A stretch of 32,000 bases of DNA from assembly GCA_030606485.1 (NCBI GenBank), contig JAUWGH010000001.1, forward strand, positions 750,001 to 782,000, in the 5' to 3' direction. Of this stretch, positions 1,187-15,322 are shown piece by piece. Source of the DNA: Promethearchaeota archaeon (GTDB lineage: Archaea > Asgardarchaeota > Lokiarchaeia > Sigyniarchaeales > SOKP01). Within the stretch, counting starts at the first letter, position 1. Each line of letters starts with the position of its first letter. The notes beneath the pieces were generated by a model. That model had not been told where the DNA came from. It did no database searches and worked only from the letters and a program-made list of their open reading frames with translations. Both the position numbers and the translations under genes were made by a program.

Positions 1187-1559
1187 TTTTTTATTTATCC
1201 CTTTTATATTTTTCAAATAAATTTTTTTAAATTAATATAGTTAATTAAAATAATCAACTCGGATGTTAATAAGTCTATTTTTTTTATTTAAAATAAGAAA
1301 TTTTACATTGTAATATAACAATAATAGGCGATTTGATATATTTGAAATAAAACTGAATATTTAGAAGAATTCATAAAAAGTAAATGGCTTGCTAATGCAC
1401 ATATATTATTTGTGTATTATTTGGATATTCTCTGGATCACATACAAGTATAATTTAGAAATAGATCGTGATATTTTTCGAGTTTAAATATCATCATAATT
1501 CAATTTACTATAAAAAATTAGATTTAAATAATTTTTTAAAAAAAAGGTTGTGTGTTGGA

Positions 1560-1916
1560 TTGAAACTGTGGAAAAAAGGTCGATATGATTTTAGAACGTC
1601 AGTAGAGGAGACTATGGGATGTTTACACAGAATGGGGGCAGTTGAGAGCTCACATCTCTCACAGTATTTAATTAAAAAGTATAATTTGTCTTCCTTAGAT
1701 CAGGTTGAAGATGTAAAAAAGCAGTTATTGAGGGGTAATATTTTAATTATTAATGTAGCTACTATTTTGGGGGATCAAAATGTGTCAATAATTGATTTTA
1801 AGAGATCTATTGATCAAATAAGGGCGGAGATTAATTTAACAGGAGGATCTATAGGAAGGATCGGAGATACTTATTTAATAATTACACCAAATAGCCATAT
1901 AAAGATTTCCCACTAA
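1560..1916 (+). CDS. sepF: Archaeal-type cell division protein SepF (DUF552)
   Basis: C-terminal core ...SLDQVEDVKKQLLRGNILIINV...KRSIDQIRAEINLTGGSIGRIGDTYLIITP matches archaeal SepF. The track start at 1467 adds low-complexity AT-rich sequence. The in-frame TTG at 1560 (MKLWKKGRY) is the more plausible start, but this is uncertain. Confidence 0.75.
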   Translation: MKLWKKGRYDFRTSVEETMGCLHRMGAVESSHLSQYLIKKYNLSSLDQVEDVKKQLLRGNILIINVATILGDQNVSIIDFKRSIDQIRAEINLTGGSIGRIGDTYLIITPNSHIKISH

Positions 1917-1993
1917 ATAATTCCAAAGCGAAAAACTAAAAACCATAGTAACTTTGAATATAAATAGAGATTTTGATTTCAATTATTTTGTGA

Positions 1994-2509
1994 GTGAAAT
2001 TTTTGGACATTAAACAGCGGCATTTTATTCGATCTTCTGAAATAAAAGAAATTATTTCACAAATTAAAAAAACTTATTTTCAAGGTTTTGTTGATAAAAT
2101 TTTTCCAAAAAAATCAAAAGTTGAGCGAATCTTAATTGAACATGGCGATGAGTTAATCGCAATTAATAATAAACTTAGCTTGTGGAAAAAGGGAAAAATC
2201 TACATTCCTATACTGTCCTTATTATTAGAAGGTAATTTAGGATTAAAAACCATCGTTGTAGATATGGGTGCAATAAAATTTGTGACTAATGGTGCTGATA
2301 TAATGCGTCCTGGAATAACAAAAATTGAACCTTCAATTAAAAAAGGTGATATAGTCAGAATAGCAGATGAAACACATGATCGAATTCTGGCTGTTGGACA
2401 AGCTACGTTTGATGCGAGGGAGATGGAAAAAAAGACGTCCGGGAAAGTTGTTAAAAACCTTCACACTATAAAAGACCCGGTCTGGAAATTTGCTAAAACC
2501 TTTAAATGA
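1994..2509 (+). CDS. PUA-domain RNA-binding protein (DUF1947 + PUA; MCT-1/Tma20 homologue)
   Basis: VVDMGAIKFVTNGADIMRPGI and the N-terminal RHFIRSSEIK are typical of the archaeal MCT-1/Tma20-like family; GTG start. Confidence 0.9.
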   Translation: MKFLDIKQRHFIRSSEIKEIISQIKKTYFQGFVDKIFPKKSKVERILIEHGDELIAINNKLSLWKKGKIYIPILSLLLEGNLGLKTIVVDMGAIKFVTNGADIMRPGITKIEPSIKKGDIVRIADETHDRILAVGQATFDAREMEKKTSGKVVKNLHTIKDPVWKFAKTFK

Positions 2510-2605
2510 AAATATTTTTTTAAAATTGAAGATATACACTGATAGAAGGAAGAAATGGAATATATTGTTTAAATTATGAAAAAAAGGAAGATTTAATTAG
2601 ATTTT

Positions 2606-2860
2606 TTATATTCCGCCTGCTTGAGTGGCCATCACTGTAATTACATCCTTTTTGGGATGAATCCCGACTTTGGTAAATTTAAGATTATCAGGAAGAACTT
2701 TTCCTTTAAAAATAAACTGGATTGCTAAGATTGGATTGAGTTTATACTCTCGTTGAACTGTTTTCTTAATTTCTGCTATGCTATTATTTGGGTCTACTTC
2801 TACTAATTTAATTGCTTGGTCTGGGGGTACCCCAGTAAGTCTAAATCTATATTGCGTCAT
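2606..2860 (-). CDS. Ubiquitin-like protein (eukaryote-type beta-grasp), precursor ending Gly-Gly-Ile
   Basis: 84 aa. LVEVDPNNSIAEIKKTVQ aligns with ubiquitin TLEVEPSDTIENVKAKIQ, and FIFKGKVL with LIFAGKQL. The C-terminus QAGGI-stop was checked in the DNA (gca ggc gga ata taa). Confidence 0.85.
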   Translation of the reverse strand: MTQYRFRLTGVPPDQAIKLVEVDPNNSIAEIKKTVQREYKLNPILAIQFIFKGKVLPDNLKFTKVGIHPKKDVITVMATQAGGI

Positions 2861-3104
2861 TATTTTTTCAGTTTCTTTTATTTATTTTAAGTCTAAATTA
2901 ATATTTACTAATTATTTTTCAATTTGGATTGTTTTTTGTTATTTATAATTTTTCAAAAGAAATTATAAAATATTTCAGTTAATTATAGGTAATCGATACA
3001 AATATTTAAAGTTTAGGTGTTTAGTAGTTATCTTTTTGTTCAATTCTTTAGTTTTAGTTCGAACAATGGTATAATTTTTATTTCTATTTTTCTTATTTTA
3101 TTTC

Positions 3105-4328
3105 ATGAGTATTTCAAATGAAAAACGAAAAATTAAAGAAGAAATATTAAGTCAAGATTATTTTAAATCGATGGCCAAATCTGATAGAATTCTTTTTGTT
3201 CTTCGGACTTTTGGGCCACAGAATTTTACTTCATTAAAGGATCTTTCAAAAATGAGCAAATCAACGGTTTCGAAATATGTAAACCTTCATCTCCAGAAAG
3301 ATTATATAGAAAAAAGATTATTTGAATTAGAAAATAACCAAAGAAGGCCAAAATATGTCCTTACTGAATCTGGTAATAAAATTTCAAAAGAACTTTTTGA
3401 AAAATTTGATGATAACTTAATTTTAATGAATAAAATTAATCGTAGTATTTCGAAACTATCACAACTAATTCAATTTTATGAGAATATTTCTGTAGATCAG
3501 TCAATAATTAATCGAATAATTAGGATTATATCAAAACTGGGAGATCAGTTTTTTACTTTAGAACAAAACGAGGATTTGTATATGTCCCTCTTTTTTATGT
3601 TTTATAACTCCGCTCTAACACCGAATTTTAGATTTGAACTTAAGGAGTTTTGTACTTTATACAAGGTAAATGAAGTCAGCATTGATTATCATATCTATAA
3701 AATTATGTCTAGTAATTTAGGATTTCATTTGTTTGAACGAGGAGATGATAAGTTCTTTTTTCATTCTGAAGATCTTTTAGGAACTATCACCTTGCGTTTA
3801 ACAAAAGATCTGCTTATAGAAGAATTGATACATTTTAATATTGAGGGAAAAACGAGAATTGATAATTTGGATAAAGTTGCAGAAGATATAGCAAAATCTC
3901 TTTTAAAAATGGGGCTTATCTGGGGTAGAATTAAAAAAGAATTTGAATTATTAATAGAAAAATTGTTTATTAAAATGGCGTTAGATATGGGATTCCCTAA
4001 AATCAATTTAATAAATTTAATTCTCTCTTCAAAAAAATTTAATGAAAATAAATTACCAATTGACTCATTAATTAAAATTTTCAATGGTTCTGAGGATTAT
4101 GTTGATTTAAATTTGGTTCCAAGTAAAATAAAATCAGACGAAAAAATTAAAGATATTTCTGGAATTAAGTTAGAGGGAGTAGTAGGGTTTTGTTCTTCTT
4201 GTGGACAATTAATTTTAAATAATGTTATCCAATGTCCTGAATGTAAAAAAAGAATCAATAAAGATCATTTATTAATGGAAATTGATAAAGCTCTCAAATT
4301 AAAAAATAAATATCAAAAGGGAACTTAA
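3105..4328 (+). CDS. Winged-helix (MarR/ArsR-like) DNA-binding protein with C-terminal zinc ribbon
   Basis: N-terminal HTH (NFTSLKDLSKMSKSTVSKYV) with wing (RPKYVLTESG); C-terminal CSSC-x10-CPEC; middle region unassigned. Confidence 0.7.
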   Translation: MSISNEKRKIKEEILSQDYFKSMAKSDRILFVLRTFGPQNFTSLKDLSKMSKSTVSKYVNLHLQKDYIEKRLFELENNQRRPKYVLTESGNKISKELFEKFDDNLILMNKINRSISKLSQLIQFYENISVDQSIINRIIRIISKLGDQFFTLEQNEDLYMSLFFMFYNSALTPNFRFELKEFCTLYKVNEVSIDYHIYKIMSSNLGFHLFERGDDKFFFHSEDLLGTITLRLTKDLLIEELIHFNIEGKTRIDNLDKVAEDIAKSLLKMGLIWGRIKKEFELLIEKLFIKMALDMGFPKINLINLILSSKKFNENKLPIDSLIKIFNGSEDYVDLNLVPSKIKSDEKIKDISGIKLEGVVGFCSSCGQLILNNVIQCPECKKRINKDHLLMEIDKALKLKNKYQKGT

Positions 4329-4466
4329 CGATACTAATAATTTTATGCGATAACTTGCGAAAATTTGGATAAAAAAATATTTTTTTTTTATTTCATTTTA
4401 TTAAAAAGACAAAGATTTTTTTGATTTTGAGATTTTAGTTATTTATTCAATAATGGAATTAATCCG

Positions 4467-10056: not shown

Positions 10057-11793
10057 ATGCCTAGGAAAATTATAAGAGTAAATATGAAAAAGCTTGAAAC
10101 AAATTATGAAGATTTGCCAGAGAAATATCAATATCTGGGCGGACGCGGTCTTACTTCAACAATTGTTGCAGAAGAAGTCCCCCCAACTTGTCATCCGTTA
10201 GGACCTCATAATAAGGTTGTATTGGCTCCAGGGATTGTTACCGGGACAAATGCTCCAAGTTCCGGTCGTCTTTCCGTTGGAGGTAAGTCTCCTTTAACTG
10301 GGGGAATAAAAGAAGCCAATGTGGGAACAAATTTTGCACAGATGCTTGGGAGAATGCGTATTGGAGCAATTATTATAGAGGAACAAACTGAAGGAAAAGA
10401 TTATTATCTTCTTAAAATTACAAATGATGGAACTGAATTTATTAAAGCAAATAAGTGGGTAGGAAAGGGACTCTATGAGGTATATAAGGATTTGCGCAAA
10501 GAATTCGGAGAAAAAATCGGTATATGCGGTGTTGGTATAGCTGCAGAACTATTTGGAGGTAATTCAGGACTATGTTTTAATGACCCAGAAGGATTACCTA
10601 GTAGATATGCTGGAAGAGGTGGACTTGGAGCCGTCATGGCGTCTCGGGGTTTGAAATTTATAGTTGTTGATGAAACTGGTGCTCCAGGAGTAGAAATCAA
10701 GAATGAAGAAGTCTTTAAAAAGGGTACAGCAAAGCTCCTCAAAGCACTTGGAGATCATGATGTGACTAAGCCAGGTGGAGCTCTCAATACTTACGGTACA
10801 GGTGTCTTAATCAATATTATAAATGAAAATGGTGGATTACCTCAGAGGAATTTTTCACGAGGACAAGATGACAGATCCGAAAAAGTATCTGGTGAAGCAA
10901 AAGCTGAGGAAATAAAGAAAAGAGGTGGAGTACGTCCTCATGGTTGTCATACAGGGTGCGTTATTCAGTGTTCTGAGGTTTGGACAAAACCTGATGGAAA
11001 AGATCCTGTTGGGGTTCTAGAATATGAATCTGTTTGGGCATTAGGTCCAAATTGCGAAATCTATGACTTGGATACCATAGGCGAACTCAATCGCGCATGT
11101 AATGATCTCGGGTTAGATACAATTGAGACAGGTACTACTCTCGCTGTAGCTATGGAAGGTGGATTAGCTGATTTCGGAGATGGAAAAGCATCTTTAAATC
11201 TTCTAGAAGAAATACGCAAAAAAACACCAACTGGGAGGATTTTAGTTAATGGAACGGAATTTACTGGTAAAGCTTTTGGAGTAACGAGAATCCCTACTGT
11301 AAAAGGTCAGGCTATGCCTGCTTATGATCCGAGAGCCATAAAGGGAATAGGGGTCACCTATGCGACCTCTCCTATGGGAGCAGACCATACTGCTGGATAT
11401 GCAATAGCTACAGAAATCATGGGCGTAGGAGGTGAAGCTGATCGTTTGGATACTAAAAAGGCAGAACTCTCACGCAATTTACAAGTTGCCACAGCTGTTA
11501 TAGATTCGGTAGGTTACTGTCTATTCATAGCTTTTGCGATCCTTGATATTGTTGAAGGTTTGGAAGGCGTTGTAGAATCAGTTAATGGTGTGTTAGGGAC
11601 AAGTTTAACATTAAATGATATCCCCACAATTGGAATGCAAGTCATTGAAACTGAAATTAAATTCAATAAAGCAGCTGGGTTCACATCTTTAGACGATAGA
11701 CTTCCTGAATTTATGAAGGAAGAAAAATTTCCGCCAGATAATGAAGTTTTCAATGTTTCAGATGAAGAACTGGACAGTGTCTTCAAGTTTTAA
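10057..11793 (+). CDS. aor: Aldehyde:ferredoxin oxidoreductase (tungsten-pterin, 4Fe-4S)
   Basis: LGGRGL, SGRLSVGGKSPLTGGIKEAN, GRGGLGAVM, GCHTGCVIQC, DLGLDTIE, AYDPR, GADH, SVGYCLF and DDRLP; AGGTG at 10046-10050 upstream of the ATG. Confidence 0.96.
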   Translation: MPRKIIRVNMKKLETNYEDLPEKYQYLGGRGLTSTIVAEEVPPTCHPLGPHNKVVLAPGIVTGTNAPSSGRLSVGGKSPLTGGIKEANVGTNFAQMLGRMRIGAIIIEEQTEGKDYYLLKITNDGTEFIKANKWVGKGLYEVYKDLRKEFGEKIGICGVGIAAELFGGNSGLCFNDPEGLPSRYAGRGGLGAVMASRGLKFIVVDETGAPGVEIKNEEVFKKGTAKLLKALGDHDVTKPGGALNTYGTGVLINIINENGGLPQRNFSRGQDDRSEKVSGEAKAEEIKKRGGVRPHGCHTGCVIQCSEVWTKPDGKDPVGVLEYESVWALGPNCEIYDLDTIGELNRACNDLGLDTIETGTTLAVAMEGGLADFGDGKASLNLLEEIRKKTPTGRILVNGTEFTGKAFGVTRIPTVKGQAMPAYDPRAIKGIGVTYATSPMGADHTAGYAIATEIMGVGGEADRLDTKKAELSRNLQVATAVIDSVGYCLFIAFAILDIVEGLEGVVESVNGVLGTSLTLNDIPTIGMQVIETEIKFNKAAGFTSLDDRLPEFMKEEKFPPDNEVFNVSDEELDSVFKF

Positions 11794-11806
11794 GAGTTCA
11801 TAAAAA

Positions 11807-12100
11807 ATGCCTATACAGGTAAGATTGTATGGAGATCTGAGAAAAATATTACCACAACACAATTATTCAAAAGGTGCTCCAAGTGTCATTGAGATCGATG
11901 GTACAGAGATTAAATTAGTAAGTGATATTTTTAAAAAAATCGGCATAGAAGAAAGTGAAACAAGCCATATTTTTGTTAATAGAATTTTTTCCGGACTTCG
12001 TAAAAAGGTTAAAGATGGAGATGGAGTTGCGATTTTCCCAAAAAATATGGGATTACTATATAAATGGTACTTTAAGAAGGTGGAAGATAATGATGAATAA
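11807..12100 (+). CDS. MoaD/ThiS-like beta-grasp protein lacking the C-terminal Gly-Gly
   Basis: IQVRLYGDLR...HIFVN...VKDGDGVAIFP is the MoaD/SAMP pattern, but the protein ends KNMGLLYKWYFKKVEDNDE. Confidence 0.8.
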   Translation: MPIQVRLYGDLRKILPQHNYSKGAPSVIEIDGTEIKLVSDIFKKIGIEESETSHIFVNRIFSGLRKKVKDGDGVAIFPKNMGLLYKWYFKKVEDNDE

Positions 12101-12332
12101 TTTGATTTCTGTTATAGTTAAATTATTTGCCGATTTAAGACAATATGGAGCGGCTAAGTCAATGATGGATTTACCAAAAGGTAGTGATGTAAACTCTATT
12201 ATTGAAAAGTTTAAAATACCTAAGGAAGAGAAAAGGTTAATAACATTGGTTAATAGAAAACGTCAAAAAAATGATTTCACTCTCAAGGATGGTGATATTA
12301 TAGCAATTTTCCCATTAATCGGTGGAGGATAA
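12090..12332 (+). CDS. moaD: MoaD/ThiS/SAMP-family sulfur carrier or small archaeal modifier with C-terminal GG
   Basis: From ATG 12090 (or 12093): VKLFADLR...LVNRKR...LKDGDIIAIFPLIGGG-stop. The track start at 11955 lies inside the previous gene and was not used. Confidence 0.88.
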   Translation: MMNNLISVIVKLFADLRQYGAAKSMMDLPKGSDVNSIIEKFKIPKEEKRLITLVNRKRQKNDFTLKDGDIIAIFPLIGGG

Positions 12333-14542: not shown

Positions 14543-15322
14543 ATGATTTTCAATACAGAATATAAGTTTGAGATTCCAAAAAGTGATATTAAAAATCCAA
14601 TAATGTTAATTGGATGGCCAGGAATTGCTTTAGTTGGAAAAGTTGCTATTACAACTATAATAGCGTCAATAAACGCAAAATCCTATATAAAAATCGAATA
14701 TAACGATTTTCCTCCAAAATCGATTGTTGAAAAGGGCAATATGAAATTACCAACTGCAGATATTTATTATAAATCTGGTGAGGAATATGATTTTTTCTTT
14801 TTAACGGCAGATTTTCAGCCTCAAACTGCTGATGGTATCTATGAGTTTAGCAAAAATTTATGTGAATTAATGAAAATCATCACTAATGATAGTATACAAA
14901 TGTATATAAGTACTGGAGCGTTAATTCCTGAAGTAATACCGGAAATTGTTAATGTTCACATATCTGGAACAGATCCAAATATTGTTAAGGATTTTTTAAA
15001 ATTAGAAAACACAAAATTAATGGAAGGAGGGATCATTGCAGGAGCTAATGGAATATTACCTGCGTATGCTGGTGTTAAAGGATATGCACCTGGAGTTTGT
15101 TTGCTAGCCGAGACCGTACCAGTTCCTATGTTAAATGCAGATCCAAAAGCTTCAAGAGCTCTGGTTTCAACTATTAAAGATTATTTTTCTCTTTCAGAGG
15201 TAACCTTTGAAGAGTTAGATAAACAAGTTATCGATCTCGAAAAATTGATTTCTTCATTAAAGTCTAGAGTTGTAAGTGATTTTGGGAAAAAAAAAGCCGT
15301 CGACGAATCATATTTTCGATAA
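14543..15322 (+). CDS. PAC2-family proteasome assembly chaperone (Pba-like)
   Basis: MLIGWPGIALVGK, DFPP, ADFQP, STGA, GGIIAGANGIL, CLLAET and DPKASR, followed by a C-terminal helix. Confidence 0.9.
   Translation: MIFNTEYKFEIPKSDIKNPIMLIGWPGIALVGKVAITTIIASINAKSYIKIEYNDFPPKSIVEKGNMKLPTADIYYKSGEEYDFFFLTADFQPQTADGIYEFSKNLCELMKIITNDSIQMYISTGALIPEVIPEIVNVHISGTDPNIVKDFLKLENTKLMEGGIIAGANGILPAYAGVKGYAPGVCLLAETVPVPMLNADPKASRALVSTIKDYFSLSEVTFEELDKQVIDLEKLISSLKSRVVSDFGKKKAVDESYFR

Follow-up and report, generated by a model that had tools for sequence, protein, structure and literature searches.

The stand-alone ubiquitin gene of a Lokiarchaeial genome and its setting among described archaeal ubiquitin systems

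The ubiquitin systems of Asgard archaea bear on the origin of eukaryotic protein tagging and of ESCRT sorting. In Caldiarchaeum subterraneum the genes for ubiquitin, E1, E2, a small RING protein and Rpn11 are gathered in one operon (PMC5654768, PMC6043591), and the ubiquitin precursor is trimmed by Rpn11 (PMC6043591). In Helarchaeia, a cascade of E1, E2 and RING E3 was reconstituted in vitro with a pro-ubiquitin that carries four residues after its di-glycine (GG-SPKN); the UEV-Vps23 protein is both substrate and reader in this cascade, whose genes are clustered with ESCRT genes (bioRxiv 10.1101/2023.07.25.550441). For Lokiarchaeia themselves, Hatano et al. (2022, Nat Commun, PMC9192718) listed the sequence 'Lokiarch_37670|Ub' of Lokiarchaeum sp. 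GC14_75 in their Supplementary Data 1 and reported by yeast two-hybrid that Lokiarchaeial ubiquitin interacts with UEV-domain proteins, including UEV/Vps23.

We examined a 32-kb stretch of DNA, hereafter the window, from a nearly complete Lokiarchaeial (Asgard) genome (3.75 Mb in 13 contigs, 100% complete by marker genes); this DNA also occurs in cold-seep and marine-sediment metagenomes. The window carries a real open reading frame that is a member of the ubiquitin family (Table 1). Its 84-aa product is the orthologue of Lokiarch_37670, with 77 of 84 residues identical when counted by eye and seven conservative substitutions. Both proteins have the same RFRLTGVPPDQAIK start, the same VMATQAGG end and an Ile directly after the di-glycine, and they differ in the length of the cap that follows, which has five residues in Lokiarch_37670 (GG-ISIIH) and a single one here (GG-I). 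Since the Lokiarchaeum sequence stands in Supplementary Data 1 of Hatano et al. (2022), the gene is already published, and the suggestion of the original prediction that it belongs to an undescribed conjugation system has to be given up. What the window carries is a Lokiarchaeial ubiquitin that is already known, standing alone as it usually does, and there is no new conjugation system at this locus. We regard it as highly likely that it is the sole ubiquitin gene of the genome, and that it acts through precursor trimming, an E1, an E2, RING proteins and UEV-type readers.

Table 1. Coordinates of the features discussed in the text. Plain numbers are positions in the window; C, G and L numbers designate contigs, genomes and loci.
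Feature	Position	Strand	Basis or remark
SepF-like (PF04472) and PUA genes	1467-2509	opposite to ubiquitin	just downstream of the ubiquitin 3' end
Universal archaeal PUA-domain protein gene, convergent with the ubiquitin gene	1994..2509	+	TIGR03684 1.6e-45, PF01472
Oligo-T run (T7 on the minus strand, A7 on the plus strand)	2579..2585	-	21-27 nt after the ubiquitin stop
Ubiquitin precursor gene	2606..2860	-	ATG start, 84 aa, TAA stop; predicted mature form 83 aa with GG end
Codons G82-G83-I84, conserved di-glycine and one-residue cap, trimming predicted	2609..2617	-	sequence; G82 2617-2615, G83 2614-2612, I84 2611-2609, then stop 2608-2606
Codons I50-F51-K52-G53-K54, ubiquitin I44...G47-K48	2699..2713	-	HMMER alignment to ubiquitin
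AT-rich divergent intergenic region, 244 bp, common to the ubiquitin and wHTH genes	2861..3104	.	sequence
Inverted repeat	2942-2969		perfect, 10 nt
wHTH protein gene, 407 aa, divergent neighbour of the ubiquitin gene	3105..4328	+	fold comparison
Aldehyde:ferredoxin oxidoreductase gene, then two overlapping small beta-grasp genes	10057-12332		
First small beta-grasp gene	11807-12100		Ub-Mut7C match, sub-threshold
Second small beta-grasp gene	11955-12332		ThiS match, 38.8 bits
PAC2-family (proteasome assembly chaperone 2-like) gene	14543-15322		12 kb from the ubiquitin gene
UBC-type E2 gene (UQ_con)	C10:380536-381048 (L010:8537-9049)	+	top matches Ubc1/UbcH5, 2.5e-21; HPN and catalytic Cys aligned
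IS200/IS605-type TnpB gene	L010:7042-8094	-	about 0.4 kb upstream of the E2 gene
E1 gene, 530 aa	C10:381803-383392 (381.8-383.4 kb), minus strand		best PDB matches are active adenylation domains of UBA1 (3.9e-31), UBA7, UBA3 and SAE2
Adjacent JAB/MPN pair	C10:797356-799170 (L041:481-1902, L043:517-1932)	-	about 470 aa each, coiled-coil tails
UBC/RWD protein, 561 aa	C12:166-168 kb		N-terminus matches Lokiarch_16100 'Vps23'
Compact ThiF/MoeB-type proteins	C10:686.9 kb; C1:42.6 kb		
Extra divergent ubiquitin paralogues of relatives (examples)	L057-L066, among them G004:C189:986-1222; G060:C3:479161-479409		
Interrupted ubiquitin orthologues	L075:3266-3545 (G019:C105); L097, about 470-500 (G039:C61); L100:3001-3285		L100 is a metagenome contig
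Interrupted E1 genes	L103:166-1758 (G019); L104:183-1763 (G032); L105:151-1761 (G026); L106:153-1763 (G007)		

Sequence and fold of the ubiquitin precursor

A Pfam search of the 84-aa protein returned PF00240 at an E-value of 4.5e-10 and 39.6 bits (curated cut-off 25.4), a match also recovered in the six-frame search of the genome. With phmmer, poly-ubiquitin, Get5/Mdy2, Rad23 and SUMO were matched among PDB sequences. An AlphaFold2 model computed from 38 orthologues (mean pLDDT 91.5) has the beta-grasp order of elements; its top Foldseek matches are ubiquitin chains, including 1ubq (TM 0.76 by query and 0.83 by target, rmsd about 2.3 Å), followed by NEDD8, SUMO and the Caldiarchaeum ubiquitin 6fnn_C. 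The eukaryote-type ubiquitin-family modifier that had been predicted from the letters is therefore what profile and fold comparison return.

Most of the residue equivalences proposed at the outset stood up as well. R-L8-T9-G10 is present letter for letter, the HMMER alignment pairs K32 with ubiquitin K27, I50 with I44 and G53-K54 with G47-K48, and the lysine pair said to lie near position 63 is K70-K71, aligned with ubiquitin 64-65 beside K63. The protein ends in ATQAGG-I and then a stop codon, as expected of the proposed precursor with one residue after its di-glycine. The exception is the methionine assigned to position 70: Met77 takes that place only when the alignment is anchored on the di-glycine, since this tail exceeds that of ubiquitin by one residue, and HMMER puts V76 opposite V70 instead.

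Likeness to eukaryotic ubiquitin and NEDD8 thus extends from the fold and the PF00240 match to the equivalents of L8, K27, I44, G47-K48 and V70, to a terminal di-glycine, to synthesis as a precursor and to the presence of a Uba1-like E1 and a UBC-type E2 that would serve it. Identity to eukaryotic ubiquitin is about 20-22%, however, the loop between beta1 and beta2 is five residues longer in the Loki protein (VPPDQ), and its tail reads MATQAGG against LRLRGG and so has no counterpart of Arg72 and Arg74. Unlike its eukaryotic counterpart, it is encoded neither as a poly-ubiquitin nor as a fusion to a ribosomal protein.

Archaeal SAMPs and Urm1 combine the roles of sulfur carrier and of conjugated modifier. 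A protein of this type could in principle be encoded here: a MoeB/UbaA-like E1 would thiocarboxylate its di-glycine for use in tRNA thiolation or in making a cofactor, whether or not the protein is also conjugated, and two compact ThiF/MoeB-type proteins of the genome might serve it. The searches make this a very improbable reading: no ThiS, MoaD or Urm1 family of Pfam matched the protein even at an E-value of 1, whereas by fold it matches ubiquitin, NEDD8 and SUMO. Moreover, the genes for sulfur transfer are unlinked to the ubiquitin gene and separate ThiS/MoaD-type proteins exist, one of them in the window itself. The latter belongs to the two overlapping small beta-grasp genes that follow an aldehyde:ferredoxin oxidoreductase gene; their MoaD/SAMP-type products are distinct from the ubiquitin gene.

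Copy number and conservation

The ubiquitin gene is the only PF00240 gene above cut-off in the genome by six-frame search, and a protein search of the genome with its own ubiquitin gave one match. A further PF00240 match of 13 bits at C10:571 kb, inside a 365-aa open reading frame in which nothing else points to a ubiquitin domain, was taken as spurious. Orthologues were detected in 56 of the 61 related genomes. Their identity spans 67-99% overall, with 93-99% inside the genus, 89-94% for the most part at family level, 73-94% at order level and 67-71% at class level. The homologue search retrieved 189 proteins, including Lokiarchaeum ossiferum NEF87_002374, and the named ones among the matches listed all come from Lokiarchaeota/Promethearchaeota. 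The ubiquitin of the cultured Lokiarchaeia Lokiarchaeum ossiferum and Prometheoarchaeum shows 73-82% identity. At family level, where ubiquitin keeps 89-94% identity, the E1 keeps 62-66% and the wHTH neighbour described below 41-48%; the E1 falls to 50-54% at order level. For the one genome documented here, Lokiarchaeial ubiquitin is more conserved than its own E1.

Seventeen positions are invariant in the 38 orthologues aligned, namely F6, R7, L8, T9, G10, P12, P13, K32, N42, I50, G53, K54, F62, G66, D72, T75 and G82. The tail from V76 through M-A-T-Q-A to G83 is at least 90% conserved, with G82 invariant and G83 at 90% or above, so that the survey of orthologues bears out the GG-X ending, the lysine equivalent to K48 (K54) and the positions of the I44 patch; chance falls far short of explaining such constancy. 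A recognisable Q-x-GG end was found in 111 of 120 cluster representatives; what follows it varies from nothing (25 of the 111) through one residue (53) to between 2 and 63 residues in the remainder, and the residue directly after the di-glycine is of 16 different kinds. Full-length orthologues that have lost the di-glycine did not appear in any sizeable proportion. Ends of this kind, with a near-invariant di-glycine and a hypervariable cap 0-63 residues long, are characteristic of modifier precursors that undergo trimming before activation.

The original prediction had described the gene as a ubiquitin paralogue uncoupled from its ligase operon and as the best candidate in the window for an undescribed conjugation system, which would make it a second ubiquitin with a separate system. 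The window, which contains no E1, E2, E3 or JAMM gene, is compatible with such a departure, as are the additional divergent ubiquitin paralogues (about 30-38% identical) of some relatives. Against it stand the single copy in the genome, the 92% identity to the published Lokiarchaeum ubiquitin, an E1/E2 locus at 380 kb that holds no other ubiquitin-like gene, and the divergent paralogues of the relatives, which likewise do not adjoin E1 or E2 genes. We give this reading next to no weight and retain that of a sole, orthologous ubiquitin.

The extra stand-alone paralogues were found in several relatives and are absent from the host genome; most are 29-38% identical to the ubiquitin and one is 61% identical. 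At ten of their loci examined, no homologue of the host E1, E2, JAB or RING proteins lies beside them. Fusions of ubiquitin-like domains to long proteins occur in the relatives G009, G049 and G018, in open frames of 389-1542 aa.

Enzymes and readers elsewhere in the genome

Pfam scans of all larger ORFs found no E1, E2, RING or JAB gene in the window, in agreement with the lack of such neighbours already noted from the sequence. An absence of E1 and E2 from the whole genome, which had been envisaged as evidence against the proposal, is not what the genome search gave: a Uba1-like E1 and a UBC-type E2 are encoded at C10:380.6-383.4 kb, about 370 kb from the ubiquitin gene at 752.6 kb on C10. 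The E1 keeps an AACTLKGIP motif whose CTLK aligns with the catalytic-cysteine motif of UBA1. It is separated by about 0.8 kb from the E2 gene, with a HAD hydrolase gene between the two. The E2 frame has 170 codons, the first 50 of which include no ATG, GTG or TTG. At the top of the frame a GGTG motif resembling a Shine-Dalgarno sequence is followed at a distance of 6 nt by an ATT, which suggests an AUU start. No hidden ubiquitin-like gene was found at the E1/E2 locus among ORFs of at least 60 aa. A TnpB gene of the IS200/IS605 type is located upstream of the E2 gene.

Candidates for the remaining functions are encoded at other sites. The genome has RING proteins of three kinds (RING-TPR, Prok-RING and vWA-PHD-RING) and five JAB/MPN proteins of eukaryotic type, four of which have an intact HxH...S..D motif (MPN+); these four are encoded at C10:798.8 kb, 810.7 kb and 886.1 kb and at C8:325.1 kb. 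The 561-aa UBC/RWD protein is the UEV/Vps23 orthologue, corresponding to Lokiarch_16100, the partner of ubiquitin in the two-hybrid assays of Hatano et al. (2022). Two of the JAB/MPN genes are adjacent and lie some 45 kb away from that of ubiquitin; one product has an intact JAMM motif and the other does not, which recalls MPN+/MPN- pairs of the Rpn11/Rpn8 type. A PAC2-family gene is also present in the window.

The arrangement differs from that of Caldiarchaeum, where ubiquitin, E1, E2, RING and Rpn11 genes share an operon, while here none of the partners lies within the 32 kb. Common to both are a precursor form of ubiquitin and a JAMM/Rpn11-type protease as the expected maturase. It likewise differs from the Helarchaeial arrangement: that system also has a pro-ubiquitin with residues after its di-glycine, an E1, an E2 and a RING E3, but the Lokiarchaeial ubiquitin gene stands alone and its predicted enzymes are encoded elsewhere. 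The proposal that the gene is uncoupled from its ligase genes holds insofar as it is encoded away from E1, E2 and E3; it fails as a peculiarity of this locus, this being the normal condition in Lokiarchaeia. E1 orthologues occur in 59 of the 61 related genomes. Megabases separate the ubiquitin and E1 genes in three closed genomes (G044, G050 and G055), in others they are on different contigs, and only in family f4 (G039, G045) is the distance between ubiquitin and a large E1-like gene as short as 3 kb or less. Scattering of the ubiquitin and enzyme genes is the rule in most Lokiarchaeia. Without extending the range of known systems, the locus documents a single ubiquitin gene with its enzymes scattered over the chromosome in one nearly complete genome.

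The following mechanism may be proposed. The divergent promoter region would drive a transcript of the ubiquitin gene by itself, and a JAMM/MPN+ (or other) protease would remove Ile84 from the 84-aa precursor to expose Gly83. The 530-aa E1 would then adenylate and thioesterify the trimmed ubiquitin, which would be handed to the nearby E2 and, with RING E3s, joined to lysines of substrates; proteins of the UEV/ESCRT-I type would read the mark. We infer activation and conjugation to lysines from the precedents of the Helarchaeial cascade and of Caldiarchaeum Rpn11, while chains of the K48 type through K54 are purely conjectural. Eukaryotic Uba1 uses Arg72 and Arg74 of ubiquitin. As the MATQAGG tail has neither, we infer the pairing with the Uba1-like E1 from co-occurrence only.

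Transcription unit, divergent neighbour and interrupted genes of relatives

On the gene map the ubiquitin gene is the sole minus-strand gene between a convergent PUA gene and a divergent gene for a winged-helix (wHTH) protein, and is therefore taken to be monocistronic, as had been proposed together with its divergence from a wHTH regulator; a search for RNA data over positions 1400-4400 of the window found none listed. The PUA gene marks the 3' boundary of the transcription unit, and the T7 run past the ubiquitin stop is likely to be an archaeal terminator signal. Synteny of the PUA/SepF flank is confined to the genus. The intergenic region contains a perfect 10-nt inverted repeat, TTTATAATTT-N8-AAATTATAAA, which is kept in three of four genomes of the same genus and was not seen beyond it, so that its role as an operator is a putative one; no palindrome common to 21 orthologous ubiquitin-wHTH intergenic regions was found.

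The wHTH protein consists of an N-terminal winged helix of MarR/PadR type, a second winged-helix-like or helical body and a C-terminal CxxC...CxxC zinc ribbon, the last of which is lost in several genera. Its sequence matches are below threshold (Pfam MarR 17.8 bits against a cut-off of 24.6, NCBIfam Lrs14 21.9 against 90), and the assignment comes from the AlphaFold2 model (pLDDT 83), in which residues 23-102 superpose on MarR regulators with a VIA-align Z of about 12 and an rmsd of 1.6-2.7 Å. The roughly 300 residues beyond this domain had no match in Foldseek against the PDB, in VIA-align wide, in the Atlas fold search or among Atlas features.

This neighbour is linked to ubiquitin well beyond the genus. 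Of 29 orthologous loci, 24 have it divergently beside the ubiquitin gene. The search of the family detected it in 31 of 36 genomes, almost without exception on the contig that carries ubiquitin, and the pair remains adjacent across at least 10 genera in which the other flank is reshuffled. An HMM search found no homologue within 4 kb of ubiquitin in 12 genomes of other families, where the neighbours are MutL, enoyl-CoA hydratase, RIO kinase, AsnC and proteins of unknown function; the pairing is therefore family-specific. This family-wide link is possibly the one new point of the locus, and the only lead that is perhaps worth an experiment.

In its simplest reading the wHTH protein is a local transcription factor whose gene has its promoter region in common with that of ubiquitin. 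Complex prediction suggests that it is possibly a ubiquitin-binding regulator. The ubiquitin-wHTH pair scored 0.59, against 0.00 for the best control, which counts as weak support; in the calibration 58 of 80 solved complexes passed the mark, as did 2 of 110 mismatched pairs, and the passes at 0.60 or less comprise only 7 of the 80 solved complexes together with both of these mismatches. Three runs shared at least 81% of the contacts, with a partner pLDDT of 85 or more. We entertain, as a speculative and rather unlikely extension, that in one Lokiarchaeial family this MarR-type wHTH/zinc-ribbon protein, restricted to Promethearchaeota, controls the ubiquitin gene, binds ubiquitin and, by sensing its free form, feeds back on transcription of ubiquitin and of itself. 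If true, this would be an archaeal circuit of ubiquitin homeostasis without a described counterpart.

Binding to the wHTH protein would also suit a ubiquitin-like adaptor which is never activated by an E1 and acts by non-covalent contacts alone, as do the UBL domains of Get5/Mdy2, Rad23 and Dsk2, with UEV/ESCRT proteins as other conceivable partners. The top single-domain PDB sequence matches are indeed UBL domains of this non-conjugated kind (Get5/Mdy2 at an E-value of 1.8e-5, and Rad23), and the missing arginines of the tail and the unlinked ligase genes fit equally. Nevertheless, a free-standing 83-aa beta-grasp protein with a near-invariant terminal GG under a hypervariable cap has the signature of a processed and activated modifier, an E1 accompanies it in nearly all the related genomes, and related Asgard ubiquitins are conjugated in vitro. 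We therefore hold the adaptor role to be improbable and keep to that of a conjugated ubiquitin.

Although the ubiquitin gene of the window is uninterrupted, the orthologues of some relatives, each the only ubiquitin copy of its genome, are broken by inserts of 30-31 nt at three different sites. In G019, excision of 31 nt yields the full conserved ORF; the insert can form a 4-bp helix (UCUC/GAGA) with a 3-nt bulge on either side, and the junction is obtained exactly if both bulges are cut behind their second base. The 30-nt insert of G039 has a TAA in frame and can fold into a hairpin of 9 bp (fold z-score -6.05); its removal restores the ORF, and its motif, likewise cut behind the second bulge base, is of a relaxed form. 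At the third site, between KDVI and TVMATQAGG, 14 of the 120 cluster representatives have a hypervariable in-frame insert of 30 nt.

The E1 gene is interrupted in the same manner in the four genomes of genus g4, where a 30-nt insert splits the GxGxxG nucleotide-binding motif (GVGAL|...|GCEIAKD). The insert contains two stop codons, both of them TAA except in G007, where one is TAG, and its excision restores the E1 ORF in the three genomes checked (G019, G032 and G007). The ubiquitin and E1 inserts are, to judge from these sequences, probably mRNA introns of the bulge-helix-bulge type known from tRNA genes, the only genes for which the literature searched describes such introns in Asgard archaea. 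The E1 insert folds into a 9-bp hairpin, in which two pairs have changed in a compensatory way between species, and has a central helix of 4 bp (GCGU/ACGU) flanked by the 3-nt bulges UAA and AAG.
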